A stretch of DNA of 64,000 bases from Isurus oxyrinchus (taxonomy: Eukaryota), in NCBI GenBank assembly GCA_026770705.1, contig JANJGN010000034.1, forward strand, positions 16,430,001-16,494,000, written 5' to 3'. Below the pieces are notes generated by a model. The model did not search any database and had not been told where the DNA came from. It saw only the letters and a program-made list of their open reading frames with translations. Made by a program: the position numbers and the translations under genes. Below, piece after piece: positions 14,041 through 48,659 of the stretch (position 1 is the first letter of the stretch; every line of letters begins with the position of its first letter).

Positions 14041-14654
14041 AAAATTTTCCAAATTCCCTTTTTGACAGTGACAAGGTCCCCAAACATTCCACGTAGTTGA
14101 TAAGCATCACACAGCTGCTTCTTCACACTGTTTCAAGGCTTCTCACTCCCCTGACCACCAGGATAATCACATGAAAAAAGATGTTTCAAGATTCCCTCAA
14201 TGAGGTCCATTGTATTAGTAGCATGATGATATTAGATACTACTACCATTGGCATACTTCCAGCTCTCTGATGAGTGCACGTTCTTGGTCATTATACTGAG
14301 TGTATCTTTCCTACAGGAATTATTTGCATGTATGATGTCAAACTGCTTCAGATACCAATTGGCCACAACTATTTATTCATTACCGCAACCCTAATGATTC
14401 CCACAAGGAGGAAGTCAGCAAATTCAATACAGTCCAATTTGACTTCACCCCATCATCACTTATGTACATCATCACACCGTGATAAACATAAGTAATCAGA
14501 CAAAAGTTAATCAGTTACATTGTTATTTCAGGCTCCTCAGTCCATTTAGTGGTGGCAAATAAGATCACCCTCAGCACTGAGTCAGGAAGTAGTGGGTGTA
14601 AGACTCCATCGCAAAAACTGGAGACCCATAATCCAGACCTGACCGTCGTGTCTC

Positions 14655-17600
14655 CAGTACTGAGGGAGTGACGCACAGTCGGAGGGTCAGTCCTGAGGGA
14701 GTGCTGCACGGTCAGAGGGTCAGTACTGAGGGAGTGCTGCATTGTCGGAGGGTCAGTACTAAGGGAGTGCTGCACTGTCGGAGGGTCAGCACTGAGGGAG
14801 TGCTGCACTGTCGGAGGGCCAGTACTGAGGGAGTGCTGCACTGTTGGAGGGTCAGTACTGAGGGAGTGATGCACTGTCGGAGGGTCAGTATTGAGGGAGC
14901 ACTGCACTGTTGAAGCGTCAGTACTGAGGGAGTGCTGCACTGTCAGAGGGTCAGTACTGAGGGAGCACTGCACTGTCGGAGGGTCAGTACTGAGGGAGTG
15001 CTGCACTGTCAGAGGGTCAGTACTGAGGGAGTGCTGCACTGTCGGAGGGTCAGTACTGAGGGAGTGCTGCACTGTCGGAGGGTCAGTACTGAGGGCGTGA
15101 TGCACTGTCGGAGGGTCAGTATTGAGGGAGCACTGCACTGTCGGAGGCTCAGTACTGAGGGAGTGCTGCACTGTCAGAGGTTCAGTACTGAGGGAGTGTT
15201 GTACTGTCAGAGGGTCAGTACTGAGGGAGCGCTGCACTGTCGGAGGGTCAGTACTGAGGGAGTGCTGTACTGTCGGAGGGTCAGTACTGAGGGAGGGCTG
15301 CACTGTTGAAAGGTCAGTACTGAGGGAGCCCTGCACTGTTAGAGGGTCAGTACTGAGGGAGTGCTGTACTGTCGGAGGGTCAGTACTGAGGGAGGGCTGC
15401 ACTGTTGGAACGTCAGAACTGAGGATGTGCTGCACTGTCAGAGGGTCAGTACTGAGGGAGCGCTGCACTGTCAGAGGGTCAGTACTGAGGGAGTGCTGCA
15501 CTGTCGGTGGTTCAGTACTGAGGGAGTGCTGCACTGTTAGAGGGTCAGTACTGAGGGAGCGCTGCACTGTCAGAGGGTCAGTACTGAGGGAGGGCTGCGA
15601 TGTCAGAGGGTCAGTACTGACGGAGTGCTGCACTGTCGGAGGGTCAGTACTGAGGGAGTGCTGTACTGTCGGAGGGTCAGTACTGAGGGAGGGCTGCACT
15701 GTTGAAAGGTCAGTACTGAGGGAGCCCTGCACTGTCAGAGGGTCAGTACTGAGGGAGTGCTGTACTGTCGGAGGGTCAGTACTGAGGGAGGGCTGCACTG
15801 TTGGAACGTCAGAACTGAGGATGTGCTGCACAGTCAGAGGGTCAGTACTGAGGGAGCGCTGCACTGTCAGAGGGTCAGTACTGAGGGAGTGCTGCACTGT
15901 CAGAGGGTCAGTACTGACGGAGTGCTGCACTGTCAGAGGGTCAGTACTGAGGGAGTGCTGCACTGTCGGAGGGTCAGTACTGAGGGAATGTTGCACTGTC
16001 AGAGAGTCAGTGCTGAGGGAGTGCTGCCCTGTCAGAGAGTCAGTACTGAGGGAGTGCAGCACTGTCAGAGGGTTATTACTGAGGGAGCACTGCACTGTCG
16101 GAGTGTTATTACTGAGGGAGCGCTGCACTGTCGGAGGGTTATTACTGAGGGAGCGCTGCACTGTCAGAGGGTTATTACTGAGGGAGTGCTGCATTGTCGG
16201 AGGGTTATTACTGAGGGAGCGCTGCACTGTCGGAGGGTTATTACTGAGGGAGCGCTGCACTGTTGGAGGGTTATTACTGAGGGAGTGCTGCACTGTCGGA
16301 GGGTCAGTATTGAGGGAGCACTGCACTGTTGGAGGGTCAGTACTGAGGGAGCGCTGCACGGTCGTAGGGTCAGTACTGAGGGAGTGCTGCACTGTCGTAG
16401 GGTCAGTACTGAGAGAGTGCTGCACTGTCAGAGGGTCAGTACTGAGGGAGTGTTGTACTGTCAGAGGGTCAGTACTGAGGGAGTGCTGCACTGTTGAAAG
16501 GTCAGTACTGAGGGAGCGCTGCACTGTCAGAGGGTCAGTACTGAGGGAGTGCTGTACTGTCGGAGGGTCAGTACTGAGGGAGGGCTGCACTGTTGGAACG
16601 TCAGAACTGAGGATGTGCTGCACTGTCAGAGGGTCAGTACTGAGGGAGCGCTGCACTGTCAGAGGGTCAGTACTGAGGGAGTGCTGCGCTGTCGGTGGTT
16701 CAGTACTGAGGGAGTGCTGCACTGTTAGAGGTTCAGTACTGAGGGAGTGCTGCACTGTCAGAGGGTCAGTACTGAGGGAGTGCTGCGATGTCAGAGGGTC
16801 AGTACTGAGGGAGTGCTGCACTTTCGGAGGGTCAGTATTGAGGGAGCGCTGCACTGTCAGAGGGTCAGTACTGAGGGAGTGCTGCACTGTCGTAGGGTCA
16901 GTACTGAGGGATTGCTGCACTGTCGTAGGGTCAGTATTGAGGGAGTGCTGCACTGTTGAAGCGTCAGTACTGAGGGAGTGCTGCACTGTCAGAGGGTCAG
17001 TTCTGAGGGAGCGCTGCACTGTCAGAGGGTCAGTACTGAGGGAGTGCTGCACTGTCGTAGCGGCAGTACAGAGGGAGTGCTGCACTGTCGTAGGGTCAGT
17101 CCTGAGGGAGTGCTGCACTGTTGAAGGGTCAGTACTGAGGGAGTGCTGCCCTGTCAGAGGGTCAGTACTGAGGGAGTGCTGCACTGTCGGAGGGTCAGTA
17201 CTGAGGGAGTGCTGCACTGTCGGAGAGTCAGTATTGAGGGAGTGTTGTACTGTCAGAGGCTCAGTACTGAGGGAGTGCTGTACTGTCGGAAGGTCAGTAC
17301 TGAGGGAGGGCTGCACTGTTGGAACGTCAGAACTGAGGATGTGCTGCACTGTCAGAGGGTCAGTACTGAGGGAGCGCTGCACTGTCAGAGGGTCAGTACT
17401 GAGGGAGTGTTGTACTGTCAGAGGGTCAGTACTGAGGGAGGGCTGCACTGTTGAAAGTTCAGTACTGAGGGAGCGCTGCACTGTCAGAGGGTCAGTACTG
17501 AGGGTGTGCTGTACTGTCGGAGTGTCAGTACTGAGGGAGGGCTGCACTGTTGGAACGTCAGAACTGAGGATGTGCTGCACTGTCAGAGGGTCAGTACTGA

Positions 17601-18858
17601 GGGAGCGCTGCACTGTCAGAGGGTCAGTACTGAGGGAGTGCTGCACTGTCGGTGGTTCAGTACTGAGGGAGTGCTGCATGTCAGAGGGTCAGTACTGAGG
17701 GAGTGCTGCACTGTCAGAAGGTCAGTACTGAGGGAGTGCTGCGATGTCAGAGGGTCAGTACTGACGGAATGCTGCACTGTCGGAGGGGCAGTATTGAGGG
17801 AGCACTGCACTGTCGGAGGGTCAGTACTGAGGGATTGCTGCACTGTCGTAGGGTCAGTATTGAGGGAGTGCTGCACTGTTGAAGCGTCAGTACTGAGAGA
17901 GTGCTGCACTGTCAGAGGGTCAGTACTGAGGGAGCACTGCACTGTCAGAGTGTCAGTACTGAGGGAGTGCTGCACTGTCGTAGGGTCAGTACTGAGGGAG
18001 TGCTGCACTGTCGTAGGGTCAGTACTGAGGGAGTGCTGCACTGTTGAAGGGTCAGTACTGAGGGACTGCTGCACTGTCAGAGGGTCAGTACTGAGGGATT
18101 GCTGCACTGTCGAAGGGTCAGTACTGAGGGAGTGCTGTACTGTCAGAGGGTCAGTACTGAGGGAGGGCTGCACTGTTGAAAGGTCAGTACTGAGGGAGGG
18201 CTGCACTGTCAGAGGGTCAGTACTGAGGGAGTGCTCTACTGTCGGAGGGTCAGTACTGAGTGAGGGCTGCACTGTTGGAACGTCAGAACTGAGGATGTGC
18301 TGCACAGTCAGAGGGTCAGTATTGAGGGAGCGCTGCACTGTCAGAGGGTCAGTACTGAGGGAGTGCTGCACTGTCGGTGGTTCAGTACTGAGGGAGTGCT
18401 GCACTGTCAGAGGGTCAGTACTGAGGGAGTGCTGCACTGTTGGTGGTTCAGTACTGAGGGAGTGCTGCACTGTCAGAGGCTCAGTACTGAGGGAGTGCTG
18501 CACTGTCGTAGGGTCAGTACTGAGGGAGTGCTGCACTGTCGGAGGGTCAGTATTGAGGGAGCGCTGCACTGTCGGAGGGTCTATACTGAGGGAGTGCTGC
18601 ACTGTCGTAGGGTCAGTACTGAGGGAGTGCTGCACTGTCAGACGGTCAGTACTGAGGGAGCGCTGCACTGTTAGAGGGTCAGTACTGAGGGAGTGCTACA
18701 CTGTTGTAGGGTCAGTACTGAGGGAGTGCTGCACTGTCGTAGGGTCAGTACTGAGGGAGTGCTGCACTGTTGAATCTTCAGTACTGAGGGATTGCTGCAC
18801 TGTCAGAGGATCAGTACTGAGGGAGTGCTGCACTGTCAGAGGGTCAGTACTGAGGGAG
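14655..18858 (+). repeat. 33-bp minisatellite (GTCAGTACTGAGGGAGTGCTGCACTGTCGGAGG), ~127 copies, preceded by a degenerate SINE head (14575-14655)
   Basis: 11-residue periodicity in the ORF track; recurrent variant units; the upstream flank resembles the flanks of the arrays at 30655 and 33220. Confidence 0.95.
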
Positions 18859-19544
18859 ATCTGCACACACAGAAAGCTGCTTTCTGGCATATCTGGCCTT
18901 CTCTTTGAATTTAAATTCTCATTGTATCACCAGGTCTTTTGAACTCCCAGCTCTTCGAACAATAAAACCTCTTTCCAGGCACCAATCTTATGAGTAATTT
19001 AAACATTGCTTGGTCTCTGCTAACTGTGTGCTAGATTTCACTCCCACTCTTGAATGATCTATTCAACAAAATGGAAATGTACCACGGTCCCTGTTTACAT
19101 CTCGAAACGACTACTCACCAGATCTCCCAGGTGCGCTGACCTTAATCCCACACATTAGACCTCCGTTTAAAACAAAGTAGTTCCAATAACATTACATAGC
19201 TTAAAATCTCCATCCATGATGAGTACATCAACACCAAGATCATTGCTTTGAGAGTGACTAAGTGTTCAGAATGCTGAGTCACAAGGATGGGGGAGAAACT
19301 GCTGCGACATGTCCCAAGCAGGCTTAACAGCAGCAATGAGCGGGTTGTGGTAAATGCTTAGGGGCAATTGGCAACTGGCAATAAAGGGTGACATTGCCAG
19401 TGGTGCTCACATCGCCAGACTGAATAACTAATATAATTAAAACTTCATTGCAATGGGGAGACTCCATCGGACCTGTTATCATCAACAACTGCATCCTCAA
19501 TCATTGTGACAAAATCTTGTGATTTAAATATGAAATCTAATCCA

Positions 19545-19890
19545 CAGAAACTGGCCATTCGGCCCTTCTGCTCTGTGCCGGTATTTCTGCTCCACACGAG
19601 CCTCGTCCCACCCCCTCTCTATCTCACCCCATCACCCTATCCTTCTCTTCCTCTCTCCCTCATGTGTTTATCCAGCTTCCCCCTTAAATACATCGACACT
19701 ATTCACCTCGACCACTCCCTGTGGGAGCGAGTTCCACATTCTCCCCACTCTCTGGGTAAAGAGGTTTCTCCTGAATTCCCCATTGGATTTATTCGTGGTG
19801 ATCTTATATCAATGGCCCCTGGTTCTGGTCTCCCCCCAACAAATGGAAACATCTTCTCTACATCTACCTGATCGAAACCCTTTCATCATT
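19545..19890 (-). mobile_element. CR1 3'-end fragment
   Basis: GGCCATTCGGCCC terminus; homologous to 5700-5975. Confidence 0.7.
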
Positions 19891-19894
19891 TCTT

Positions 19895-20518
19895 TTCATT
19901 CATTCATGAGATGTGGGCGTCGCTGGCTGGGCCCAGCATTTATTGCCCATCCCTAGTTGCCCCTGGAGAAGGTGGTGATGAGCTGCCTTCTTGAACCGCT
20001 GCAGTCCCTGTGGTGTAGGTACACCCACTGTGCTGTTAGGAAGGGAGTTCCAGGATTTTGACCCAGCGACAGTGAAGGAACGGCCGATATATTTCCAAGT
20101 CAGGATGGTGAGTGACTTGGAGGGGAACTTCCAGGTGGTGGTGTTCCCATGTGTCTGCTGCCCTTGTCCTTCTAGATGGTAGTGGTTGTGGGTTTGGAAG
20201 GTGCTGTCTAAGGAGCCTTGGTGAGTTGCTGCAGTGCATCTTGTAGATGGTACACACACTGCTGCTACTGTGCGTCGGTGGTGGAGGGAGTGAATGTTTG
20301 TGGATGGGGTGCCAATCAAGCAGGGATGCTTTGTCCTGGATGGTGTTGAGCTTCTTGAGTGTTGTGGGAGCTGCACTCATCCAGGCAAGTGGGGAGTATT
20401 CCATCACACTCCTGACTTGTGCCTTGTAGATGGTGGACAGGCTTTGGGGAGTCAGGAGGTGAGTTACTCACCGCAGGATTCCCAGCCTCTGACCTGCTCT
20501 TGTAGCCACAGTATTTAT
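19895..20518 (-). mobile_element. 5'-truncated HER1-like LINE
   Basis: MEYSPLAWMSAAPTTLKKL..; tail CATTCATTCATGAGATGTGGGCGTCGCTGG on the + strand. Confidence 0.88.
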
Positions 20519-20539
20519 TTCTGATCAATGCTAATCCCA

Positions 20540-21113
20540 ATCTAACCCCGTGCTTTATGGAGACAGTGTAGAGGGAGCTTTACTCTGTATTTAACCCCGT
20601 GCCGTACCTATCCTGGGAGTGTTTGATGGGGACGGTGTAGAGGGAGCTTTACTGTGTACCTAACCCCATGCTGTACCTGTCCTGGGAGTGTTTGTTGGGG
20701 ACAGTGTAGAGGGAGTTTTACTCTGTATCTAACCCCGTGCTGTACCTGTCCTGGGAGTGTTTGATGGGGACGGTGTAGAGGGACCTTTACTCTGTTTCTA
20801 ACCCCGTGCTGTACCTGTCCTGGGAGTGTTTGATGGGGACAGTGTAGAGGGAGCTTTACTCTGTATCTAACCCCGTGCTGTACCTGTCCTGGGAGTGTTT
20901 GATGGGGACAGTGTAGAGGCAGCTTTACTCTGTACCTTTCCCCATGCTGTACCTGTCCTGGGAGTGTTTGATGGGGACAGTGTAGAGGGAGCTTTACTCT
21001 GTATCTAACCCCGTGCTGTACCTGTCCTGGGAGTGTTTGATGGTGACAGTGTAGAAGGAGCTTTACTCTATATCTAACACCGTGCTGTACCTGTCCTGGG
21101 AGTGCTTGATGGT
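20540..21113 (-). repeat. 69-bp minisatellite, ~8 copies
   Basis: Unit CTCCCTCTACACTGTCCCCATCAAACACTCCCAGGACAGGTACAGCACGGGGTTAGATACAGAGTAAAG on the minus strand; 23-residue periodicity. Confidence 0.95.
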
Positions 21114-21299
21114 GAAATAAATGTTTTCCGATGTGTCTAACGCAGAGACTGGAATGAAGATATAAGCTGGGATCAGAATTGGAAATTTGCCACATAATTA
21201 TTTCGGGATGGAGGGCCGCTGCAGCTTTAGAGGCATTGGGGAGGATTCAAACCACTTCCATCAATTCTGTTTGACAGATTGGAAAGCAACAGTTCACTG

Positions 21300-21531
21300 A
21301 GGGGTGAAAGCGTTAACTTCAGTGAACTGGACTGTGGGGAGCGCATGAACCACGCCTCCGATTTTCTGATTAGCTGTAACATCCGCATTTTGGCTCTAGT
21401 CTGGAATGTGGTGTTGAAACTTGGATATTATTTTCTGATTCTCAGAGTTTCTGTTAGGGCTGGGAGTGCTCTTCTGTCTGCGTGTGCATTGCTCTCACTC
21501 TCTCTGCAATGTGGTATTCCCAGTTCTCAGG
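21300..21531 (+). promoter_or_regulatory. Candidate promoter/non-coding first exon of the B7-family gene
   Basis: Unique island ending in a consensus donor AGG|GTAAGT (21531/21532), followed by IRF-like AGTTTCTCTCACTTTC and further AGTTTC motifs. The ATG exon at 24180 has an acceptor and therefore needs an upstream exon. The start coordinate is approximate. Confidence 0.4.
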
Positions 21532-21812
21532 GTAAGTTTCTCTCACTTTCCAGTCCAGGGTTTCCTGCATAAAAACAGCTTCACTGCTCAGGAGTTTCAG
21601 CTGTTGAGCCAGTTTCACANNNNNNNNNNNNNNNNNNNNNNNNNNNNNNNNNNNNNNNNNNNNNNNNNNNNNNNNNNNNNNNNNNNNNNNNNNNNNNNNN
21701 NNNNNNNNNNNNNNNNNNNNNNNNNNNNNNNNNNNNNNNNNNNNNNNNNNNNNNNNNNNNNNNNNNNNNNNNNNNNNNNNNNNNNNNNNNNNNNNNNNNN
21801 NNNNNNNNNNNN

Positions 21813-22047
21813 CTCTCTGTTTCTCCCACTATCTCTCTCTCTCTATCTGTCCCTCTGCCTCTGTCTCTCTCTCTCTGTCTGAGTCTCTCTGTCTGTCTGT
21901 CTTTTTGTCTCTATCTCTTTGTGTGTGCCTCTCTCCCTCTGTCTCTCCCTCTGTTTCTTTCCCCCTCCAACTCTGTCCCACTCTATCTGTCCCTCTGTCT
22001 CTGTCTCTCTCTCTTTTTGTCTGTCTGTCTCTCCCTCTGTCTTTCTC

Positions 22048-22085
<38 letters not shown>

Positions 22086-22820
22086 TCTCTCTCCCGTCTC
22101 TCTTTTTCTTTCCCCTGCTATCCCTGTCTCTCTCTATCTGTGTCTCTGTCGCTGTCTCGCTATCTCTCTCTTTCAATGTATCTTATTCTCTGTCTCCCTC
22201 TCAGTCTCATCTCATTCTCTCTCTGTTCCATTCCGTCCCTGCTTCTCACTCTCTATCTCTGCCACTCTCCTTTTCTAACTCTTTCTCTCCCAATTCTCCA
22301 CCTCTTTTTATCTCGACATCTCTCTCTCTCACTCTCCCTCTCCCGTTGTCTCTCTGTCTCTCACTCTCTCTCTCTGTCTCTCTCTCTCTCACTCTGTCTC
22401 TCTCTCTCTCACGTTGTCCCTCACTCTCTCTCCCTCTGTCTCTCACTCTCTCACTCTGTCTCTCTCTCACTCTCTCTCTGTCTCTCTCTCTCACTGTCTC
22501 TCTCTCTCTCGCTCTCTCACTCCTCTCTCTGTCTCTCTATGTCTCTCTATGTCTCTCTGTCTCTCTCTCTGTGTGTCTCTCTCTGTCTCTCTCTCACTCT
22601 CTCTCACTCTCTCTCTGTCTTTCTCACTCACTCTCTCTTTGTCTCTCACTCTCTCTCTGTCTCTCTCTCTCTCTGTCTCTCTGTCTCTCTCTCTCTGTCT
22701 CTCTCTCTCTCTCTCACTCTCTCTCTTTCTTCATTTCTTTTCCTCATTCACTCCTTATTTCTTGCTCAGAGTTTCTCTCTGTCTTTCTCATTGATTCTCT
22801 CTCTTTCTCTCTCTCCCTCA
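21813..22820. repeat. ~1-kb (CT)n-rich polypyrimidine tract with an internal (GT)n; follows gap 21620-21812
   Basis: Direct inspection. Confidence 0.95.
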
Positions 22821-22821
22821 A

Positions 22822-23060
22822 GAACAGGAGGAGGCTATTCAGCCCCTCGAGTCTGTTACACAGGAACAGGAGGAGGCCATTCAGCCCCTCGAGCCTGTTA
22901 CACAGGAACAGGAGGAGGCCCATTCAGCCCCTCGAGCCTGTTACACAGGAACAGGAGGAGGCCCATTCAGCCCCTCAAGCCTGTTACACAGGAACAGGAG
23001 GAGGCCCATTCAGACCCCTCGAGCCTGTTCCTCCATTCAATGGGATCTTGGCTGATCTGT
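22822..23060 (-). repeat. 42-43-bp tandem repeat (5 copies) built from a CR1 3' terminus
   Basis: GAACAGGAGGAGGCCATTCAGCCCCTCGAGCCTGTTACACAG at 22822, 22864, 22906, 22949 and 22992; the last copy continues as normal CR1 sequence (compare 43578-43650). Confidence 0.85.
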
Positions 23061-23109
23061 GAATTAATTCCACATACCCACCTTTGCCCCATATCCCTTC
23101 ATCCCTGAT

Positions 23110-23500
23110 AATGGGGGATTCAGTGATGGTAATGCCATTGAACATCAAGGTTAGATTCTTTCTTGTTGGAGATGGTCATTGCCTGACACTGGTGTGGTGT
23201 GAATGTTACTTGCCACTTGTCAGCCCAAGCCTGGATATTGTCCAGGTCTTGCAGCATTTGGACATGGACTGCTTCAGTATCTGAGGAGTCGCGAATGGTG
23301 CTGAACATTGTGCAATCATCAGCGAACACCCCGGCTTTCGATCTTGTGATGGGAGGAATGTCATTGATGGAGCAGCTGAAGGTGGTTGGGCTGAGGACAC
23401 TACCCTGAGGAACTCCTGCAACAATCATTTGGGACTGAAATAATTGACCTCTGACTACTACAGCCATTTTCCTCTGTGCTAGATATGACTCCAGCCAATT
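23110..23500 (-). mobile_element. Internal RT fragment of the HER1-like LINE
   Basis: AGVPQGSVLSP..VFADDCT. Confidence 0.85.
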
Positions 23501-24180
23501 GTCCTAGAGTTCAGCTCCACCTCAATTTACCTGATAGGCAGACTTGATATCTTGAGTTGACAAAAGCCGCAATTATAAGTAAACATTCTTTTCTCTCTCT
23601 CTCTCTCTCTTTCTCTCTTTCTCCCTCTCTCTCTCTCTCTTTCTCACTACTGGTTCCTGTTTTGATCCACTACCCACACACTTGTGCAGCAGTGGCTTTG
23701 GTTCAGGAACGGGGATGCGAGTGGGCTATCCCCCTCTCCCCCCTCCCCCGTGAACGCAGAGCAGGGAGGGGGAGAGGGGAACGGGTGTGTGCCGAGGGTG
23801 GGTGGGGTTGGGGTTGGGGTTGGGGCCGGGGCAAGTATAGGTGTTAGATTTCAGCCAGCAAAGCTGCCAGAGAGCAGGGGCTGCGATGCCCTTCGAGGTC
23901 GAAAAGTTGACTGGCTTCTTCAAAATGCAAAAATCCCAAGTTTGGGAAAAAAAAACGGGAGCACTCACAGGTTTGAAGGCGCAGTATCCTAGATTAAGAG
24001 GGTGGGGAGATTGAGGATTTGGGATTTGGGATTTGCTTGGTGGGGGGGCGGGGGGGGGGGCGGGGTGGGGGGGTGGGGGGATGTTCTGGTAGGTGCAGAG
24101 TGGAAGAGTGTCACATAAAATTGAACCATGCACTGTTTGAAACGCACACTTTAATTGGAACATTTCTCTTCTCTTTCAGG

Positions 24181-24232
24181 ATGAAGGCGCTATTTCTTGG
24201 GCTGTGTGTGTTAGTCCTCAGGGCTGAGGAAG
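24181..24232 (+). CDS. B7-family Ig-superfamily protein, coding exon 1 (signal peptide MKALFLGLCVLVLRAEE)
   Basis: Polypyrimidine acceptor TTTCTCTTCTCTTTCAG|G ATG; donor GAAG|GTGGGT, phase 1; n/h/c signal-peptide pattern; splices in frame to the IgV exon. Confidence 0.8.
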
Positions 24233-24289
24233 GTGGGTACTTGATTGACCTTATCCTATTTGTAATGGCTGACAGAAAAAAACTCAACC

Positions 24290-25440: not shown

Positions 25441-25590
25441 TGGTTCTAGGAAGTCCAAATCTTGACTGTTTTTCAATTGCATTCAATGGGTTGTTTCAGC
25501 TGGCGGGGGGGTGGGGTGTCAATAGAAAGAAATATCCAGAGGGGAGTATAACTGCCAGTTCTCCACCCTCCTTCCAAAATTTGTAACATT

Positions 25591-27630: not shown

Positions 27631-27639
27631 CCATTGGTT

Positions 27640-28657: not shown

Positions 28658-28714
28658 GTAAGAGAAATTTAAATTAATCCTCTGCTTCATTTTGACTGGA
28701 ACTGAAAGGGTTAA

Positions 28715-29460: not shown

Positions 29461-30180
29461 TAAAAATTACATTGCATAGAGTAGGATTGTATTCCTCCGA
29501 GTCTAGAAGATTAAGGCGTGACCTAATCGAGGGGTTTAAGATGAGGTTTCAATAGGGTCTATAGAGAGAAACTATTTCTTCTGGTGTGGTTTATGGGGGG
29601 GTGCAGGGGGAGTCCCTTAAAATTGGAGACGGGCCATTCAGGGGGTGATGTCAGGAAGCACTTCCTCATACAAAGGGGAAGAGGAAATCTGGAACTCTCT
29701 CCCCACACGCACCCCCGCAAAAGGCCATTGACTGAAAATGTCCAAACTGCGATTTTCTTTATTTTTTTTGCTGGGTAAGGGTATTAAGGAACCGAGCTGG
29801 GTAGAGGGAATTTTAAGAGGCAGACGAGCTGTGGCTTACCGAGGGCTGTATGGCCTCCTCCTCTTCCTATACCCCTCTGTCCACTGCTCAAAGGATTGAG
29901 GGTGCGGCTGCCGAGTGAGGGGGATGCAAGTTGCGACGCCCCCTGCAGTCAAATAGCCCAGCACCAATCAACGGCAAGATGCAGGGTTCAGAAAAGCTGC
30001 CAGGGCTCGGTGGTGGGGGGTGGGGAGGGTGGTGGGGTGGGGAGGGGGGCTCTAGGTTGGGGGTGGTGGGATTTGGGTTCCAAAGCTAGGAGCAGAGGTG
30101 GGGAAAAGAAAATGAGAGAGTTTTTTTTTAGCATCAGGTCTTGTCTGTGTTAATGACTCCGATTTTTATCCAACTCTCAG

Positions 30181-30459
30181 CCCAGTACCGGACACCAGAG
30201 ATAAACATCACACGGGGAGTGGACAATGTTGTCACTCTCACCTGTTCCACCAGTGGAGGTTACCCAGAGGCTGCGGTGCGATGGGTGAATGGAAGTGATA
30301 ACAGTTCCTTCCCGGAGAATCTGGTGGTGACCAGACACGTCAGGGACGAGCATCGACTGTACAGTCTGACCAGTGTCCTTCGGGTCAAAGTCAGTAATGA
30401 CCGCATCACCTGTCAAATCATCAGCAACAGAACTGAAGACATCAATAACTCGGTCTCAG
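30181..30459 (+). CDS. B7-family protein, coding exon 3 (CD80-like IgC domain)
   Basis: Acceptor ..CTCTCAG|, donor CAG|GTGAGG, phase 1-1. AQYRTPEI..VTLTCSTSGGYPEAAVRW..DEHRLYSLTSVLRV..ITCQI carries the B7/butyrophilin C-domain signature CxSxGGYPxP/A. Confidence 0.92.
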
Positions 30460-30599
30460 GTGAGGCTGCGAGAGCCAAACTCCTGTAGTAACTGTAGAGA
30501 TTCATTGCCATGTTGCTGTGTTCCGGAGGGAAGAGGGTAGATTGTCCGAAGGACCATAGTGAGCAGCAATTCCATAATCTTCAAATTCCAAAGGTTATG

Positions 30600-31866
30600 G
30601 GAAGGGCTCCCCAGCAGAGAGACCTGAACCCAGAATCCAGGCACGCAGGTCCAATACAGTACTGAGGGAGTGCTGCACTGTCAGAGGGTCAGTATTTAAG
30701 GATTGCCGTACTGTCGGATGGTCAGTACTGAGGGAGTGCTGCACTGTCGGAGGGTCAGTACCGAGGGAGTGCTGCACTGTCGGAGGGTCTGTACTGAGGG
30801 AGTGCTGCACTGTCAGAGGGTCTGTACTGAGGGGAGTGCTACACTGTCAGAGGGTCAGTACTGAGGGAGTGCTGCACTGTCGGAGGGTCAGTACTGAGGG
30901 AGTGCTGCACTGTCGGAGAGCCAGTATTTAAGGATTGCCGTACTGTCGGATGGTCAGTACTGAAGGAGTGCTGCACTGTCTGAGGGTCAGTATTTAAGGA
31001 TTGCCGTACTGTCGGATGGTCAGTACTGAGGGAGAGCTGCACTGTCGGAGGGTCAGTACTGAGAGAGTGCTGCACTGTCGGAGGGTCATTGCTAAGGGAG
31101 TGCTGCACTGCCAGAGGGTCAGTGCTGAGGGAGTGTGCACTGTCGGAGGATCAGTACAGAGGGAGTGCTGCACTGTCAGAGGGTCAGTACTGAGGGTGTG
31201 CTGCACTGCCAGAGGGTCAGTACTGAGGGAGTGCAGCACTGTCGGAGGATCAGTACTGAGGGAGTGCTGCACTGCCAGAGGGTCAGTACTGAGGGAGTAC
31301 TGCACGGTCGGAGGGTCAGGACTGAGGGAGTGCTGTACTGTCAGAGGGTCAGTGCTGAGGGAGTGCTGCACTGTCAGAGGGTCAGTACTGAGGGAGCGCT
31401 GCACTGCCGGAGGGTCAATACTGAGGGAGCACTGCACTGTCAGAGGGTCAGTACTGAGGGAGCGCTGCACTGTTAGAGGGTCAGTGCTGAGGGAATGCTG
31501 CACTGTTGGAGGGTCAGTGCTGAGGGAGCTCTGCACTGTCAGAGGGTCAGTACTGAGGGAGTGCTGCACTGTTGGAGGGTTAGTACTGAGGGAGTGCTGC
31601 ACTGCCAGAGGGTCAGTACTGAGGGAGCTCTGCACTGTTGGAGGGACAATATTTAGCATGAGATGTTAAACCAAGGCCCCTGTCTGCCCTCTCAGGTGGG
31701 TGTAAAAGATCCCATGGCCACTATTTTGAAGATGAGCGCTGTGTCCTGGGGCCAATATTTGTCTCTCAACTAAAACACTTAAAACAGATGATCTGGGTCA
31801 TTGTCACACTGCTGTTTGTGGGAGCTTGCTGTGCGCAAATTGGCTGCTGTGTTTCCCACGTTACAA
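30600..31866 (+). mobile_element. Deu-domain-type SINE with an internal 33-bp minisatellite expansion (about 30655-31645, ~30 copies)
   Basis: The array is followed by ATGAGATGTTAAACCAAGGCCCCTGTCTGCCCTCTCAGGTGGGTGTAAAAGATCCCATGGC..GCTGTTTGTGGGAGCTTGCTGTGCGCAAATTGGCTGC, which I recognise from memory as the DeuSINE/SacSINE1-type central domain; also present at 38690-39880 on the minus strand. Confidence 0.75.
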
Positions 31867-31869
31867 ACC

Positions 31870-32770
31870 TTATGCAGCTCCAGCAACAGTCAACAAGCTC
31901 AATACATCCAGGACAAAGCAACCCGCTTAATTAAAAACCCATCTTCCACCTTCAATATTCACTCCCTACACCACTGACGCACAGTAGCAGCAGTGTGTGT
32001 ACCATCTGCAAGATGCACTGCAGGAATTCACCAAGGCTCCTTAGACAGCACCTTCCAAACTCACGACCTCTACCATCTAGAAGGACAAGGGCAGCAGACA
32101 CATGGGGAACATCACCACCTGGAAGTTCCCCTCCAAGTTACTCACCATCCTGACTTGGAAATATATCGGCCGTTCCTTCAGTCGCTGGGTCAAAATCCTG
32201 GAACTCCCTCCCTAACAGCACTGTGGGTGGGCCTTACAGCAGTAGAAGAGGATATTCAGCCCATTGTGCGGGCTGTTTGAAAGATCTATCCAATTATCCC
32301 CACACTCTCCCCCCCACCTTGCTCTTTCCCCCATAGTCCTGCAAATCTTTCCCCTTCAATTATTAATCCAATTCCCCCTTTTGAAAGTTCCTATTGAATC
32401 TGCTTCCACCGCCCTTTCAGGCAGCGCCTTCCAGATCACAACAACTCGCTATGTCAAAAAAAATTCTCCTCATCTCCCCCTCTGGTTCTTTTCCCGATTC
32501 TCTTCAATCTGAGTCCCTCTGGTTACCGACCCTCCTGCCACTGGAAACAGTTTCTCCTTATTGACTCTATCCAAACCCCCTTCATGATTCTGAACGCCTC
32601 GATTCAATCTCCCCCTTAACCTTCTCTGCTCTAAAGGAGAACAATCCCCAGCTTCTCCCAGTCCCTCCACATGAACTGGAGTCCCCGGGACCATTCGAGT
32701 AGATCGCCGTCTCACCAAGCCTTCCTAAAGTCCATGGTGACCGGAAGTGGACACAGTCCTCCAGCTGGTC
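31870..32770. mobile_element. HER1-like LINE fragment (+, about 31870-32230) followed by a CR1 3' fragment (-, about 32250-32770)
   Basis: Homology to other copies in the window; FSLEQRRLRG-type translation. Confidence 0.8.
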
Positions 32771-33219
32771 GTTGAGAGATTTGGCAAGGTTTAACAGTGA
32801 CATTATTGTTCTTGGACTTCAAAACACTATTAATATTGCCAAAAGTCCCACTGGCTTTTCAAGAATGTTTCACAATATTTGCTTTTATCCCAGTAAAAGA
32901 GAGTTTCCTACTCTCTTAGAATTGCAGACATTCACTCTGTCTATTCTGTTCCACAACCCCTGTTAAAATTGTACCTCAAGTTGATAAAAAAAATCTCTTA
33001 ACTCTCAAAACACTTCACACTTCCTTCCCTTAAATGTCACGTGCATGTGTTAACCACACCAGTTAACAGATTCAGAAGAAGTTCCTGCCTGTAATGCTTG
33101 AAGTGATGGCCACATGTTCACCCTGGGGCTGTGTGGGAAGCAGCCTACTTATTCAGCAGAACACTGTGGCTTAGTCCCACCCAAGTGTTCAGTGCAAACT
33201 TCAACACTGATCTGCCCTC

Positions 33220-33873
33220 TGCAGTGCTGAGGGAGTACTGCACTTTTGGAGGGTCACTGCTGAGGGAGTGCTGCACTGTCAGAGGGTCAGTACTGAGGGA
33301 GTGCTGCACTGTCAGAGGGTCAGTACTGAGGGAGTGTGGCACTGTCGGAGGGTCAGTACTGAGGGAGCACTGCACTGTCAGAGGGTCAGTACTGAGGGAG
33401 TGCTGCACTGTCAGAGGGTCAGAACTGAGGGAGCGCTGCACTGTCAGAGGGTCAGAACTGAGGGAGTGCTGCACTGTCGGAGGGTCAGTACTGAAGGAGT
33501 GCTGCACTGTCGGAGGATCAGTACTGAGGGAGAGCTGCACTGTCGGAGGGTCAGTACTGAGGGAGCACTGCACTGTCGGAGGGTCAGTACTGAGGGAGCG
33601 CTGCACTGTCGGAGGATCAGTACTGAGGGAGAGCTGCACTGTCGGAGGGTCAGTACTGAGGGAGCACTGCACTGTCGGAGGGTCAGTACTGAGGGAGTGC
33701 TGCACAGTCGGAGGGTCAGTACTGAGGGAGCACTGCACTGTCGGAGGGTCAGTACTGAGGGAGTGCTGCACTGTCGGAGGGTCAGTACTGAGGGAGCACT
33801 GCACTGTCGGAGGGTCAGTACTGAGGGAGTGCTGCACTGTCGGAGGGTCAGTACTGAGGGAGTGCTGCACTGT
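33220..33873 (+). repeat. 33-bp minisatellite, ~20 copies, preceded by a degenerate SINE head
   Basis: Same unit as 14655-18858. Confidence 0.95.
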
Positions 33874-34214
33874 TAGTGTCTGGAATGCGCTGCCTGAGAG
33901 TGTGGTGGAGGCAGATTCATTCGAGTCATTCAGGAGGGCATTGTATTATGACCTGTTAAGTAAGAATGTGCTAGGCTACAAGATGAAAGTGGGGGAGTGG
34001 CACTAGATAAATTCCTCTCATGAAGAGCCAGCATAGAGAAGTTGCACTGAATGGCCTTTGTGCTGTAACGATTCTGGTGACACTATGATGGCGATACTCT
34101 GGAAGGCACAGCTGCTGCAAGGGAGTGTAAGGTGTGGTGAAAGGATTCAGCTGCAGTAACAAGAGATTCTATCGGATAATGGTTGACTTTCTCTCTTCCT
34201 CATGTTTTGTTCAG

Positions 34215-34324
34215 TGTACCCCAACGGTCGTGGACCCAGCTCGATCAAGGTTGCCTCTGGAGCAAGCAAGCTGTCCTTCCTCTGGAGCATTCTCATAACC
34301 GGTGCCTCGCTCTCTTTGAAGTAA
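34215..34324 (+). CDS. B7-family protein, last coding exon (linker + hydrophobic C-terminus, putative GPI signal)
   Basis: Acceptor CTTTCTCTCTTCCTCATGTTTTGTTCAG|; phase 1 gives VYPNGRGPSSIKVASGASKLSFLWSILITGASLSLK-stop (TAA 34322-34324). Total CDS is 52+321+279+110 = 762 nt. Confidence 0.7.
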
Positions 34325-36009
34325 ACCCTTCTCGATTCTTCTGTCTGCTCTGAATGTCCCTCTGCTGCGGGCAGTGGGTGGACACAGACTGGCGCGTGCC
34401 ACATCTCCGCTCTCCTTCCCCTTGCCTCTTGGCCAGACGTGGTCACGCCCGGACATCATGGTTGAGGAGCCTGTCTGACTGTCTTGCCTCTGTTAGCTTA
34501 GCCGCACATAGCGTTGGGGGGGCTGGGGAGGGGGAGGGTGGTGGTGCAGGAGGTGTTTGGNNNNNNNNNNNNNNNNNNNNNNNNNNNNNNNNNNNNNNNN
34601 NNNNNNNNNNNNNNNNNNNNNNNNNNNNNNNNNNNNNNNNNNNNNNNNNNNNNNNNNNNNNNNNNNNNNNNNNNNNNNNNNNNNNNNNNNNNNNNNNNNN
34701 NNNNNNNNNNNNNNNNNNNNNNNNNNNNNNNNNNNNNNNNNNNNNNNNNNNNNNNNNNNNNNNNNNNNNNNNNNNNNNNNNNNNNNNNNNNNNNNNNNNN
34801 NNNNNNNNNNNNNNNNNNNNNNNNNNNNNNNNNNNNNNNTTGGTGNNNNNNNNNNNNNNNNNNNNNNNNNNNNNNNNNNNNNNNNNNNNNNNNNNNNNNN
34901 NNNNNNNNNNNNNNNNNNNNNNNNNNNNNNNNNNNNNNNNNNNNNNNNNNNNNNNNNNNNNNNNNNNNNNNNNNNNNNNNNNNNNNNNNNNNNNNNNNNN
35001 NNNNNNNNNNNNNNNNNNNNNNNNNNNNNNNNNNNNNNNNNNNNNNNNNNNNNNNNNNNNNNNNNNNNNNNNNNNNNNNNNNNNNNNNNNNNNNNNNNNN
35101 NNNNNNNNNNNNNNNNNNNNNNNNNNNNNNNNNNNNNNNNNNNNNNNNNNNNNNNNNNNNNNNNNNNNNNNNNNNNNNNNNNNNNNNNNNNNNNNNNNNN
35201 NNNNNNNNNNNNNNNNNNNNNNNNNNNNNNNNNNNNNNNNNNNNNNNNNNNNNNNNNNNNNNNNNNNNNNNNNNNNNNNNNNNNNNNNNNNNNNNNNNNN
35301 NNNNNNNNNNNNNNNNNNNNNNNNNNNNNNNNNNNNNNNNNNNAGAGGAGCTGTGTAATCGATGAAATTGTTCAGGTGCTAAATGGAGGGGGGGGGGGGC
35401 CTGCCGAAACATCTGGTTGGGACTGACCGGCTGCGATTGTCGTACACCGAGAAGACTTTGGTTCCGGGATGGGGGGGTTGTGAGTCAGAGGAAAGAGGAC
35501 AAACAGAGCCGGTCCGGGTATGCTGCCCGTTTTTCCACCTCGCGGAACAGCAATGGACAATTACCCAGCTCCGGCCTGGCCCACCCACCACCCCCACCCC
35601 ACCCAGCCACGCCCCCCCCCGCCACGCCAGCCCTGACCCAAGCCGCCCGCCCGAGCCAAGCAATGGAACCATACTCGACCTCAGGATGTGCCTGCTGCAA
35701 CCGCTGCCCCCTGCTGTGAAGCCTCCTGCAGTCGAGGCAGGAGAGTGGGAATGGACAGGACGTTTGTTACGATGGAATCCGGGCAGGCGTGTGAATTTTA
35801 AGGGTCTCCAGCTGCCCAAGTCTGGATTACTGGATGTGTCTGAACTCTGGGGTTAATTTGCGATTCATATTAAAAGGACAGTTTTGAAATCTTGGTTGAT
35901 TGTTTGAAATCCTGCTTCAGTCCACTTTTGTACCTTTGTTCCCAACCCGCTCGACTATTCCAACACTCTACTGCCCAGCCTCCCATCCCCCCGCCCTCCG
36001 TAAACTTCA

Positions 36010-37420
36010 CCTCATCCAAAACTCTGCCGCACACAACCCCCACCCAATGTCCTAACTCGCACCGAGTCCGGTCCACCCATCGCGCCCTGTCACTCGCTGA
36101 CCCACACTGGCTCCCGGTCCAGAAGCAACTCCATTTTCAAATCCTCATCCTTGTTTTCAAATGCAGCCCCTACAACCTTCCCTATCTCTGTAACCTCCTC
36201 CAACCCCTACAAACCTCCCTATCTCTGTAACCTCCTCCAGCCCCTACAACTCTCCCTATCTCTGTAACCTCCTCCAGCCCCTACAACCCTCCCTATCTCT
36301 GTAACATCCTCCAGTTCCTACAACCCTCCCTATCTCTGTAACCTCTTCCAACCCCTACAAACCTCCCTATCTCTGTAAAATCCTCCAGGCCCCACAACCC
36401 TCCCTATCTCTGTAACCTCCTCCAACCCCTAAAAACCTCCCTATCTCTGTAACCTCCTCCAGCCCCTACAACCCTCCCTATCTGTGTAACCTCCTCCAGA
36501 CCCTACAACCCTCCCCATATCTGTAACCTCCTCCAACCCCTACAACCCTCCCTATCTCTGAAACCTCCTCCAGCCCCTACAACCCTCCCTATCCCTGCAA
36601 CCTCCTCCAGCCCCTACAACCCTCCCTATCCCTGTAACCACCTCCAGCCCCTACAACACTCCCTATCTCTGTAACCTACCCCAGCCTCTACAACCCTCCC
36701 TATCTCTGTAACCTCCTCCAACCCCTACAACCCTCCCTATCTCTGAAACCTCCTCCAGCCCCTACAACCCTCCCTATCCCTGCAACCTCCTCCAGCCCCT
36801 ACAACCCTCCCTTCTCTCTGTAACCTTCTCCAGCCCCTACAACCCTCCCTATCTCTGTAACCTACCCCAGCCCCTACAACCCTCCCTATCTCTGTAACTT
36901 CTTCCAGCCCCTACAACCCTCCCTATCTCTGTAAACTCCTCCAGCTCCTACACCCCTCCCTATCTCTAAACTCCTCCAGCTACTACACCCCTCTCTATCT
37001 CTGTAAGCACCTTCAGCCCCTACAACCCTCTCTATCTTTGTAACCTCCTGCAGCCCCTACAACCCTCCCTATCTCTGGAACCTCCTCCAGCCCCTACAAC
37101 CCTCCGAGATCTCTGCGCTCCTCCAATTCTGGCCTCTTGACCATCCCCCCATTCCCATCGCTCCACCATTGGCGGCCGTGCCTTCAGCTGCCTGGGGGCC
37201 CTGAGCTCTGGAATTCCCTCCCTAAACCTCTCCCACCCTCTCTCTCTCTGCCTCACTCATCTTTAAGACCCTCCATAAAATCTTCATCTTTGAAAAAGGT
37301 TTGACTAAAATCTCCTAATAATGCTGCAAGAGGCACAGTGTCAGATTTCTGCCAAATAACCAGTCCTGTAAAGCATCTTGGGAGATTTCAAGTTGCTATA
37401 CGAACGCAATTTGTTGTTGA
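36010..37420 (+). mobile_element. L2-clade LINE 3' fragment containing a 37-bp minisatellite (about 36165-37104, ~25 copies)
   Basis: LADPHWLPVQKQLHFQILILVFK..PYLCNLLQP resembles the L2 ORF2 C-terminus. Unit CTCTGTAACCTCCTCCAGCCCCTACAACCCTCCCTAT, period 37; L2 resumes at CCGAGATCTCTGCGCTCCTCC. Confidence 0.85.
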
Positions 37421-37659
37421 TTACATCTTATGGGTAGCTACAATTGAGAGCAACTGAAACCAAACCTTGTGGATCTCAAGCTGATTCATGTCTTGGGCGC
37501 TGACATACTGAGCAAAGCCCTTCCCTATTCCTTCCTCGAATTCTCAGATGCTGAGGTCATGGGGCCCAGAATATTGAACCAGTCCCGAGGAACAATTCCA
37601 CACTCCTAAAACAGAACGCGAGCTCCAGTGAGCAACGTGAACGAAAGGTTACGGGAGAT

Positions 37660-38402
37660 AGATAAAGAGTAAAGGTCCCGCTACACTATCCCCATCAAAC
37701 ACTCCCAGGAGAGGTGCAGCACGGGGTTAGATACAGAGTAAAGCTCCCTCTGCTCTGTCCCCATCAAACACTCCCAGGACAGGTACAGCACGGGGTTAGA
37801 TACAGAGTAAAGCTCCCTCTATACTGTCCCCATCAAACACTCCCAGGACAGGTACAGCACAGGGCAAGATACAGAGTAAAGCTCCCTCTATACTGTCCCC
37901 ATCAAACACTCCCAGGACAGGTACAACAAAGGGTTAGATACAGAATAAATTTCCCTCTACACCGGCCATCAAACACTCCCAGGAGAGAAAGAGCATGGGG
38001 TTAGATACAGAGTAAAGCTCCCTCTACACTGTCTCCATCACACACTCCCAGGACAAGTGCAGCACAGGGTTAGATACACAGTAAAGCTCCCTCTACACTG
38101 TCCCCATCAAACACTCCCAGGACAGGTACAGCACGGGTTAGATACAGAGTAAAGCTCCCTCTACACTGTCTCCATCAAACACTCCCAGGACAGGTACAGC
38201 ATGGGGTTAGATACAGAGTAAAGCTCCCTCTACACTGTCTCCATCAAACACTCCCAGGACAGGTACAGCATGGGGTTAGATACAGAGTAAAGCTCCCTCT
38301 ACGCCGTCCCCATCAAACACTCCCAGGACAGGAACAGCACGGGGTTAGATACAGAGTAAAGCTCTGTCCACACTGTCCCCATCAAACACTCCCAGGACAG
38401 GT
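37660..38402 (+). repeat. 69-bp minisatellite, ~10-11 copies
   Basis: Same unit as 20540-21113, opposite orientation. Confidence 0.95.
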
Positions 38403-38479
38403 CTGGTGTAGAATATTCTATGTTGATAGGTGTATGTTGACTGGTGTTAAACACAGACCCAGTAACCAGACTAGAATAT

Positions 38480-38640
38480 GTCTGAGCGGAAGTGAAACTA
38501 TTCTTGTTGAGGTGAAGAAGTCACCCCCACAGCACTGGCTGCTGGTTCCGGTCCCCGCAGGTACTTCTCCATTCCACCCACCACCCCAACTCCGCCATGT
38601 CCAAACTCCTGTCTGACCTGGAACTGAAAGTAACATGTAA
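38480..38640. promoter_or_regulatory. Candidate enhancer with two Ets-IRF composite elements
   Basis: GGAAGTGAAACT (38488-38499) and GGAACTGAAAGT (38620-38631) both match GGAAnnGAAA, within a short unique island. Confidence 0.45.
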
Positions 38641-38689
38641 CAGCCATCACACACCGCCTCAAAGAACTTCCCCTCTTACACCTATTGAC

Positions 38690-41370
38690 ACTTCAGGACA
38701 ACACAAAGCCTTTCACAACCAATGGGCCTTTTGAAGAGGGCTCACTGTCATTTTACAGAGAAACGTGGCAGTCACTTTGCACACAGCAAGTTCCCACAAA
38801 CAGCAATGTGAGAACCACCCAGACAGAGAGTAACGCTCCCTCTACACTGTCTCCATCAAACACTCCCAGGACAGGTACAGCACAGGGTTAGATACAGAGT
38901 AAATCTCCCTCTACACTGTCTCCATCAAACACTCACAGGACAGGTACAGCATGGGGTTAGATACAGAGTAAAGCTCCCTCTACACTGTCTCCATCAAACA
39001 CTCACAGGACAGGTACAGCACGGGGTTAGATACAGAGTAACGCTCCCTCTACACTGTCTCCATCAAACAGTCCCAGGGACAGGTACAGCACAGGGTTAGA
39101 TACAGAGTAAAGCTCCCTCTACACTGTCCCCATCAAACACTCCCAGGACAGGTACAGCACGGGGTTAGATACAGAGTAAAGCTCCCACTACACTGTCCCC
39201 ATCAAACACTCCCAGGACAGGTACAGCACGGGGTTAGATACAGAGTAAAGCTCCCTCTACACTGTCTCCATCAAACACTCCCAGGACAGGTACAGCACGG
39301 GGTTAGATACAGAGGAAAGCTCCCTCTACACTGTCTCCATCAAACACTCACAGGACAGGTACAGCACGGGGTTAGATACAGAGTAACGCTCCCTCTACAC
39401 TGTCTCCATCAAACAGTCCCAGGGACAGGTACAGCACAGGGTTAGATACAGAGTAAAGCTCCCTCTACACTGTCCCCATCAAACACTCCCAGGACAGGTA
39501 CAGCACGGGGTTAGATACAGAGTAAAGCTCCCACTACACTGTCCCCATCAAACACTCCCAGGACAGGTACAGCACGGGGTTAGATACAGAGTAAAGCTCC
39601 CTCTACACTGTCTCCATCAAACACTCCCAGGACAGGTACAGCACGGGGTTAGATACAGAGGAAAGCTCCCTCTCCACCAAACACTCTCAGGACAGGTACA
39701 GCGCACTTTTTACGATGTTGGTTGAGGGATAAATATTGGCCCCAGGAAACCGGGGAGAACTCCCCCCTGCTCTTCTTCCAAATATTGGCTGTGAGATCTT
39801 TTACACACACCTGGCAGGGCAGACTGGGGCCTCGGTTTAATGTCTTATCTGAAGCATGGCACCTCCAACACTACAGCATTCCGTCAGTACTGACCCTTCA
39901 ACAGTGCGGCGCTCCCTCAGTACTGACCCTCCAACAGTGCAGCACTCCCTCAGTACTGACCCTCCAACCGTGCAGCACTCCCTCAGTACTGACACTCCAA
40001 CAGTGCAGCACTCCCTCAGTACTGACCCTCCAACAGTGCAGCACTCCCTCAGTACTGACCCTCTGACAGTGCAGCACTCCCTCAGTACTGACCCTCCAAC
40101 AATGCAGCACTCCCTCAGTACTGACCCTCCAACCGTGCAGCACTCCCTCAGTACTGACACTCCAACAGTGCAGCACTCCCTCAGTACTGACCCTCCAACA
40201 GTGCAGCACTCCCTCAGTACTGACCCTCTGACAGTGCAGCGCTCCCTCAGTACTGACCCTCCAACAGTGCAGCGCTCCCTCAGTACTGACCCTCTGACAG
40301 TGCAGCGCTCCCTCAGTACTGACACTCTGACAGTGCGGCACTCCCTCAGTACTGACCCTCCGACAGTGCAGCACTCTCTCAGTACTGACCCTCTGACAGT
40401 GCAGCACTCCCTCAGTATTGACCCTCTGACAGTGCAGCACTCCCTCAGTACAGACCCTCTGACAGTGCAGTACTCCCTCAGTACTGACCCTCCGACAGTG
40501 CAGCACTCCCTCTGTACTGACCCTCTGACAGTGCAGCACTCCCTCAGTACTGACCCTCCAACAGTGCAGTGCTCCCTCATTACTGACCCTCTGACAGTGC
40601 AGCACTCCCTCAGTACTGACCCTCCAACAGTGCAGCACTCCCTCAGTACTGACCCTCTGACAGTGCAGCGCTCCCTCAGTACTGACCCTCCAACAGTGCA
40701 GCGCTCCCTCAGTACTGACCCTCTGACAGTGCAGCGCTCCCTCAGTACTGACACTCTGACAGTGCGGCACTCCCTCAGTACTGACCCTCCGACAGTGCAG
40801 CACTCTCTCAGTACTGACCCTCTGACAGTGCAGCACTCCCTCAGTATTGACCCTCTGACAGTGCAGCACTCCCTCAGTACAGACCCTCTGACAGTGCAGT
40901 ACTCCCTCAGTACTGACCCTCCGACAGTGCAGCTCTCCCTCAGTACTGACCCTCTGACAGTGCAGCACTCCCTCAGTACTGACCCTCTGACAGTGCAGCA
41001 CTCCTTCAGTACTGACTCTCTGACAGTGCAGCACTCCCCAGTACTGACCCTCCGATAGTACAGCCCTCCCTCAGTACTGACCCTCCGACAGTGCAGCACT
41101 CCCTCTGTACTGATCCTCTGACAGTTCAGCACTCCCTCAGTACTGACCCTCCAACAGTGCAGTGCTCCCTCATTACTGACCCTCTGACAGTGCAGCACTC
41201 CCTCAGTACAGACCCTCTGACAGTGCAGCACTCCCTCTGTACTGACCCTCTGACAGTGCAGCGCTCCCTCAGCACTGACCCTCCGACAGTGCAGTGCTCC
41301 CTCAGTACTGACCATCCGACAGTGCAGCACTCCCTCAGTACTGACCCTCTGACAGTGCAGCGCTCCATCT
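38690..41370 (-). mobile_element. Deu-domain-type SINE interrupted by a 69-bp array (about 38820-39703, ~13 copies) and carrying a 33-bp array (about 39860-41370, ~45 copies)
   Basis: SINE tail 38690-38822 and body 39705-39880 are reverse-complement homologues of 31650-31866; the arrays are evident from their periodicity. Confidence 0.85.
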
Positions 41371-48650: not shown

Positions 48651-48659
48651 AGTTTTCGA

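Follow-up and report, generated by a model that had tools for sequence, protein, structure and literature searches.

Based on the sequence of the window (the whole stretch of 64,000 nucleotides analysed here, positions 16,430,001 to 16,494,000 of Isurus oxyrinchus contig JANJGN010000034.1) and of samples across the genome, we propose that the 33-bp arrays of this shark form one genome-wide minisatellite family, which was probably born by slippage within a SINE and then copied among old SINE copies by ectopic gene conversion. The data suggest that DNA repair still copies the 33-mer between distant sites, long after the SINE stopped jumping. The window belongs to C34 (19.9 Mb; genome 4.98 Gb). 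As reference we use a master, the consensus of 30 single-unit SINE copies retrieved by an exact pattern. Tandem Repeats Finder assigns one consensus to four arrays in the window (14655-18866, 30657-31645, 33222-33873 and, on the minus strand, 39874-41375), with about 128, 30, 20 and 46 units, and HMM comparison with the master places all four at one SINE site, in agreement with the original prediction. The features are as follows.

14556..14654, plus strand: SINE copy 1, old 5' head with no 3' body left (HMM match from model position 32; 69% identity to master; score matched by 0/200 shuffles)
14655..18866, plus strand: 33-bp array 1, GGT junction, about 128 units (Tandem Repeats Finder, HMM)
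30581..30656, plus strand: SINE copy 2, old 5' head (HMM match from position 52; 63% to master)
30657..31645, plus strand: 33-bp array 2, about 30 units, the sole window array with both flanks
31644..31868, plus strand: SINE copy 2, 3' body (4/7 small-chromosome marker motifs; HMM)
33139..33221, plus strand: SINE copy 3, old 5' head with native TG/CAG border (HMM; 66% to master)
33222..33873, plus strand: 33-bp array 3, 20 units, ending abruptly on unrelated repeat DNA
39863..41375, minus strand: 33-bp array 4, headless, about 46 units, the terminal one old
39707..39862, minus strand: SINE copy 4, 3' body with native GAG/GTGCC border (4/7 marker motifs; HMM)
38827..39677, minus strand: unrelated 69-bp array that splits the body of SINE copy 4 (the SINE model stops at position 305 and restarts at 322)
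38663..38813, minus strand: SINE copy 4, rest of body and tail (HMM positions 322-478)

The flanks are diverged and the arrays homogeneous, as had been claimed: the window heads share 56-62% pairwise identity, none of 200 shuffles matches the scores of the three heads against the master, and units lie on average only 1.9-2.7 per 33 letters from their consensus. The 3' bodies beside arrays 2 and 4 are 86 and 84% identical to the master. Three of the four arrays lack one SINE flank, again as expected, the head in array 4 and the body in arrays 1 and 3. The native borders that had been placed near 33220 and 39857 were recovered as well, the left one reading TG-CAGTGCTG and the right one falling at about 39866-39858 on the minus strand. 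GGT is the junction, that is, the three letters at which successive units meet, in 96, 24, 17 and 38 of the 128, 28, 20 and 45 units counted in arrays 1 to 4. The window also holds an exon with a CD80-like C2-set Ig domain (30177-30458; E 8.5e-11) and a likely last exon with a hydrophobic tail at its end (about 34215-34322), which on a reading of the sequence would belong to a putative B7- or butyrophilin-like gene; arrays 2 and 3, downstream of the CD80-like exon, apparently lie in an intron.

Other tandem repeats share the window. Arrays of a 69-bp unit occur at 20550-21112, 37651-38402 and 38827-39677, in about 28 clusters of the sampled regions, and as a ~624-unit array nearby (L061-L065, C34:16.33-16.38 Mb). 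This minisatellite has no flanks common to its loci and sits inside unrelated repeats, SINE copy 4 included; it looks as if it inserts at non-cognate sites. The 37-bp arrays (36164-37105 and 47847-48654) lie at a single position within a different interspersed element, of which the distal samples contain single-unit copies, a pattern like that of the 33-mer. The 43-bp arrays (22822-23029) are expansions at one position in a third abundant repeat, which mostly occurs with a single unit. Further arrays have units of 56 bp (2406-2796), 23 bp (46312-47043) and 35 bp (51497-52168).

What distinguishes the site within the SINE? The master contains the unit once, between the native borders TG/CAG on the left and GAG/GTGC on the right, with 30 of the 33 unit letters aligned to positions 126-155. 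A GTGC direct repeat, 33 bases apart, flanks the site. The original prediction had named a junction within the SINE consensus itself as evidence against it; the master has no GGT junction. The strongest hairpin of the master coincides with the site (-13.0 kcal/mol, against -8.9 elsewhere); compared with shuffles it reaches z -3.1 in one SINE copy and -1.1 in another. It still folds at the array starts L126 and L132 as it does in the single-unit copy L051, and DNA from within the arrays shows no more stable folding than its shuffles (z -1.3 and -0.8). The hairpin is a plausible place for stalls or breaks. The repeat amounts to 11 codons within a non-coding SINE and encodes no nuclease. Four of the six reading frames of the unit are open, so that long 33-bp arrays can give spurious predicted proteins with 11-residue repeats. 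Motifs that we take to be A- and B-box-like are visible in the master, and the host element is presumably a SacSINE1-like, tRNA-headed Deu-SINE; an Rfam scan of six old SINE copies returned no tRNA match, just chance hairpin matches.

The family is large. Genome-wide, the GGT junction has 264,725 exact matches and GTG, the slippage junction, 96, which bears out the claim that the arrays use a junction other than that of simple slippage. The 42% match rate in sampled arrays yields an estimate of ~630,000 units, or 21 Mb, in a number of arrays bracketed between about 1,400 and 12,000, with a median length of 21 units. An assembly artefact is ruled out by the very high unit depth in runs of several studies. 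Exact matching further recovered 608 single-unit sites, 320 array ends and 236 array starts with native borders, which represent the empty and occupied forms of a cognate site. Single-unit matches track chromosome length, with 84/608 on C1-C3 (15% of the genome), whereas array ends (9/320) and starts (10/236) avoid these chromosomes; array matches are mostly near contig ends and on small contigs, among the matches listed. The ratio of arrays to single units is 13:3 in the window surroundings (13/17 copies on a wider count, which adds a few more diverged singles), 24:1 on C37, 3:5 on C36, 2:0 on C33 and 6:0 in one C8 region; on large chromosomes it is 1:4 in the distal samples and 0:3 in the interior ones. 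Only the last two sets were placed regardless of matches; the C33, C34, C36, C37 and C8 regions were picked near known matches, and their occupancy, such as 24/25 on C37, is therefore overstated. For the same reason, and because the two C8 samples were left out, we do not rely on a Fisher test of occupancy (42:9 versus 1:7, p 2e-4). Interior array clusters are seen at C8:13.7-17 Mb, C10:36.5-38.8 Mb, C15:59-63.5 Mb and C1:134-139 Mb, and GGG junctions abound in the first three. These clusters may once have been chromosome ends or recombination hot regions. The C1 region includes a 33-mer array of more than 13 kb, at 134.34 Mb.

Array units are younger than their hosts. The non-CpG divergence from the master is 0.047 for inner units of 18 small-chromosome arrays and 0.075 for 85 large-chromosome array pieces (some chosen by pattern and some overlapping). 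For 17 single units it is 0.169, which places array units 2-4 times nearer the master than single units. Purely local expansion would keep units as far from the master as their host. The array consensus equals the master core in 64/85 and 16/18 arrays, and single units differ at ~17% of sites. One unit variant is in the majority in 19/23 C37 arrays and in 1/13 C34 arrays, so that homogenisation has a regional component.

Ectopic conversion is seen most directly between the C37 copies. In 200 kb of C37, ten of the 25 SINE copies have a long body. Identity among these bodies is 0.96-0.99 at +30 to +150 and then falls to 0.84, 0.76 and 0.68 (the last at +270-300), and several bodies revert to old-type SINE sequence at differing points. 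Heads are present in 4/10 long-body copies, one of which has just two units, and these heads are only 60-67% identical pairwise. Near-identical bodies beside such heads fit conversion tracts with their origin inside the array or next to it. Recent retrotransposition of the bodies is out, since identity drops toward the 3' end, and so is segmental duplication, since 5' neighbours and the sequence beyond the SINE end differ. The window bodies of SINE copies 2 and 4 resemble C37 bodies (80 and 81% identity) more than large-chromosome bodies (68 and 66%), which suggests an older round of the same process. Several left borders on C34, C36 and C37 show one extra letter after the native border and before the first unit, such as GTGT or GTGC in 7/31 cases, possibly out-of-register conversion ends.

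Could the arrays have travelled instead by way of circular templates, whether DNA or RNA, or as retrocopies, truncated at the 5' end, of transcripts that spanned array and body? Eight of 49 arrays are flankless and 19 keep the 3' body only, the unit was found in an RNA run (which may be DNA), and the 69-bp family lacks shared flanks, all of which would suit such a route. We regard it as extremely unlikely, given that the young C37 bodies differ most at the 3' end, contrary to what target-primed reverse transcription would produce, that the tracts rejoin old-type sequence at differing points, and that orphan arrays are equally explained by deletion of flanks. In all, 41 of the 49 arrays retain at least one flank and 14 both, against 10/16 and 23/30 single-unit copies with both flanks, which indicates frequent faulty repair. 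In L006, L111 and L133, the array is inverted with respect to the SINE body, or abuts an inverted array or SINE.

The junction records a history. In the region samples, GGT accounts for 1301/1482 junctions and GTG for none; the first junction is GGT in 25/31 arrays (GTG in 1/31) and the last in 41/46. Arrays with GTG and GGG junctions and little or no GGT do occur (L308, L141, L305 and L163), and many of these relics are more diverged than GGT arrays (up to 0.21). GGG makes up 10 of about 37 junctions in 200 kb of C8 (14-17 Mb), compared with 5/1482 in the other samples. Depth-weighted contig counts over a two-unit locus, from one run per organism, give T at ~98% for the third junction base in organism B (X9; perhaps the source of the present genome), G at 61% in organism C (X12) and A at 90% in organism D (X22, at ~200-fold lower depth), and G at the second base in all three; in the contigs of organisms C and D, the unique flanks of the locus are not covered at 85% and no contig spans it. 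As the SINE copies look older than the lineage splits, the dominant junction was likely replaced at dispersed loci in each lineage.

One explanation for these patterns is that each SINE copy duplicated its unit independently, by GTGC slippage or by fold-back copying of the hairpin, and that the arrays were homogenised later. The microhomology and the hairpin are present in every copy, the left arm, once reverse-complemented, differs from the GGT junction by one letter, and arrays rich in GTG, GGG or TGT junctions occur. Nevertheless, we judge this to be very unlikely. GTG is almost missing from the sampled junctions, there were 0/30 fresh dimers among the GTG loci viewed, junctions do not track local left-arm mutations, and array consensus sequences match the master core despite the divergence of single units. 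Fold-back copying of the left arm was also rejected as the source of GGT, since junctions ignore local changes in that arm and GGG appears older. The relic GTG and GGG arrays trace a two-step path from the slippage product, contrary to the earlier view that slippage was excluded as the origin of the unit; the unit was likely born by ordinary slippage, and its junction then changed from GTG to GGG to GGT across dispersed loci. Nor did the 10-bp palindrome TCAGTACTGA, to which the original prediction had attached weight, prove to be a requirement: it is broken in 19/23 C37 arrays and absent from GGG arrays.

On large chromosomes, array-bearing and single-unit SINE copies are equally old, and no subfamily of the former is apparent. 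The body distance from the master is 0.209 for 28 arrays and 0.198 for 33 singles, and body identity is 0.621 between arrays, 0.636 between singles and 0.625 across the two classes. Among 299 flank sites on large chromosomes, none was significantly diagnostic of arrays after correction. In a tree of 84 bodies, from which 22 similarity-picked rows were left out (three pairs among 29 similarity matches look like duplicates, and the whole set was kept out), the array label requires 23 changes against 24.2 when shuffled and is thus unclustered on large chromosomes. Small-chromosome copies, singles included, do cluster, which could arise from a regionally biased subfamily or from parallel GC-biased change. 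The tree is star-like, and a single clade of array-bearing copies survives an AU test (p 0.27); monophyly of the array-bearing SINEs, which would speak against the prediction, thus has no evidence in its favour but is not disproved. This bears on a further explanation, that an ancient SINE master with a GGG dimer seeded all sites by retrotransposition, after which the arrays grew in areas of high recombination and were homogenised from array to array, with no gain at single-unit sites. The AU result, the small-chromosome clustering, the old full-length GGG dimer at L338 and the G at the second junction base in organisms B, C and D would all fit. We consider it unlikely, because dimers are rare (L338 is the one among 20 full-span large-chromosome copies), no dimer appeared in 50 loci viewed from the GGG pattern, no flank site is diagnostic, and the occupancy of 13/17 and 24/25 in two sampled regions would demand an extreme insertion bias. 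Moreover, ectopic conversion would still be needed for the GGT junction and the C37 mosaics.

Our preferred model of slippage followed by ectopic conversion can be set out in steps. Slippage on the GTGC repeat at the hairpin, whose anatomy is visible in the master, would have given a unit with a GTG junction. To judge from the relics and from other organisms, GTG would have changed early to GGG, and then to GGT here and to GGA in another lineage. Arrays gather towards the ends of chromosomes and on the small ones, presumably places of high recombination. Another SINE copy would then serve as the repair template, such that units and up to about 250 bases of the 3' body are copied while the old head stays; such tracts are seen on C37 and may be general, and aberrant repair would account for the frequent loss of one flank. 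Homology within the SINE is what the tracts rely on, so conversion should be able to reach single-unit copies as well. Three observations favour gain at such sites: local occupancy is high, large chromosomes have few dimers, and newly born GTG arrays are lacking. We lean slightly towards the view that single-unit copies also become array-bearing in this way, by a passive homing that needs no nuclease and leaves its target undestroyed. As regards the predicted spread of a single shared family by ectopic conversion, old flanks, young units, the C37 mosaics and the lineage-specific junction uphold spread or homogenisation after SINE insertion; the gain of arrays at single-unit sites is likely. 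A more far-reaching form of the model is tentative: in a nuclease-free homing minisatellite, hairpin breaks in single-unit SINEs might be repaired from array copies, the array might colonise most copies of a dead retroposon in recombination-rich chromatin, junction variants might sweep thousands of loci per lineage, and the same drive might act on at least two other shark retroposon sites (those with 37- and 43-bp units).

Homing introns and inteins spread to cognate empty sites by break repair from an occupied copy. The 33-mer is not a homing element in this strict sense: it has no nuclease and its target stays intact, its transfer is ectopic rather than allelic, the hairpin survives occupation, and the process is reversible by collapse to one unit. 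Alu- and B1-derived minisatellites, reportedly described by Jurka and Gentles in 2006 and Bois et al. in 1998, also bear comparison. According to the accessible text of PMC6947457, they share with the 33-mer a birth by slippage between short direct repeats in a SINE and the formation of multi-locus families. Human repeats derived from all transposable elements number 7,276 in the part of PMC3389668 consulted, against the hundreds of thousands of units estimated here for one unit at one site, and the consulted parts of these two papers describe no inter-locus sweep. The closest known system is that of the squamate SINE-derived satellites, or sSats (Vassetzky et al. 2023, PMC10702118). As far as the consulted part of that paper goes, these occupy many loci, and their tandem units stem from a portion of a tRNA-related SINE; one SINE terminus is usually kept, one variant dominates, homogeneity prevails within and between loci, and there is a subtelomeric bias. 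Likewise, the 33-mer is part of a SINE, has loci with at least four units and a SINE flank, is homogeneous and appears to prefer subtelomeric positions, but its length of 33 bp lies outside the ~70-290 nt of sSat units. The words 'gene conversion', 'junction' and 'shark' are absent from the text of PMC10702118 that was accessible, and, to that extent, the 33-mer goes beyond the sSats in its junction, a marker of turnover by lineage, and in the conversion tracts that can be read in the SINE body beside the arrays. The spread of Rsp-like repeats into Drosophila 1.688 clusters (Sproul et al. 2020, PMC7403614) is, in the portion consulted, alike in its junction signature at many loci, in the use of an older dispersed repeat as landing pad and in a flanking repeat that travels with the satellite, and interlocus conversion or eccDNA was proposed there. 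That case involves two unrelated satellites, with 19/31 clusters on one X chromosome, whereas the landing pad of the 33-mer is the retroposon from which the unit itself stems, and its loci number in the thousands. SacSINE1, a tRNA-headed Deu-SINE of cartilaginous fish, would match the host element in its tRNA-like head, similar length and shark genome, and the accessible part of its description (PMC5499810) is free of the words 'tandem' and 'minisatellite'. Our search of the openly accessible literature found neither the 33-bp repeat nor its unit motif described.

What does the 33-mer mean for the biology of these genomes? How a satellite variant spreads among unlinked loci (molecular drive) has long been asked, and few systems allow one to read donor, recipient and tract. 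At each 33-mer locus the old head tags the lineage, the three-letter junction serves as a dated marker, and the body shows tracts that decay with distance; from these one can measure how fast and how far ectopic conversion acts and over which chromosomes. Where GGG relics cluster, recombination may formerly have been intense. A SINE body that looks young is not necessarily a sign of recent retrotransposition. An excess of tandem repeats has been reported for short shark chromosomes and chromosome ends (PMC10620051), and, on the part of that report consulted, the 33-mer arrays are a likely source of it.
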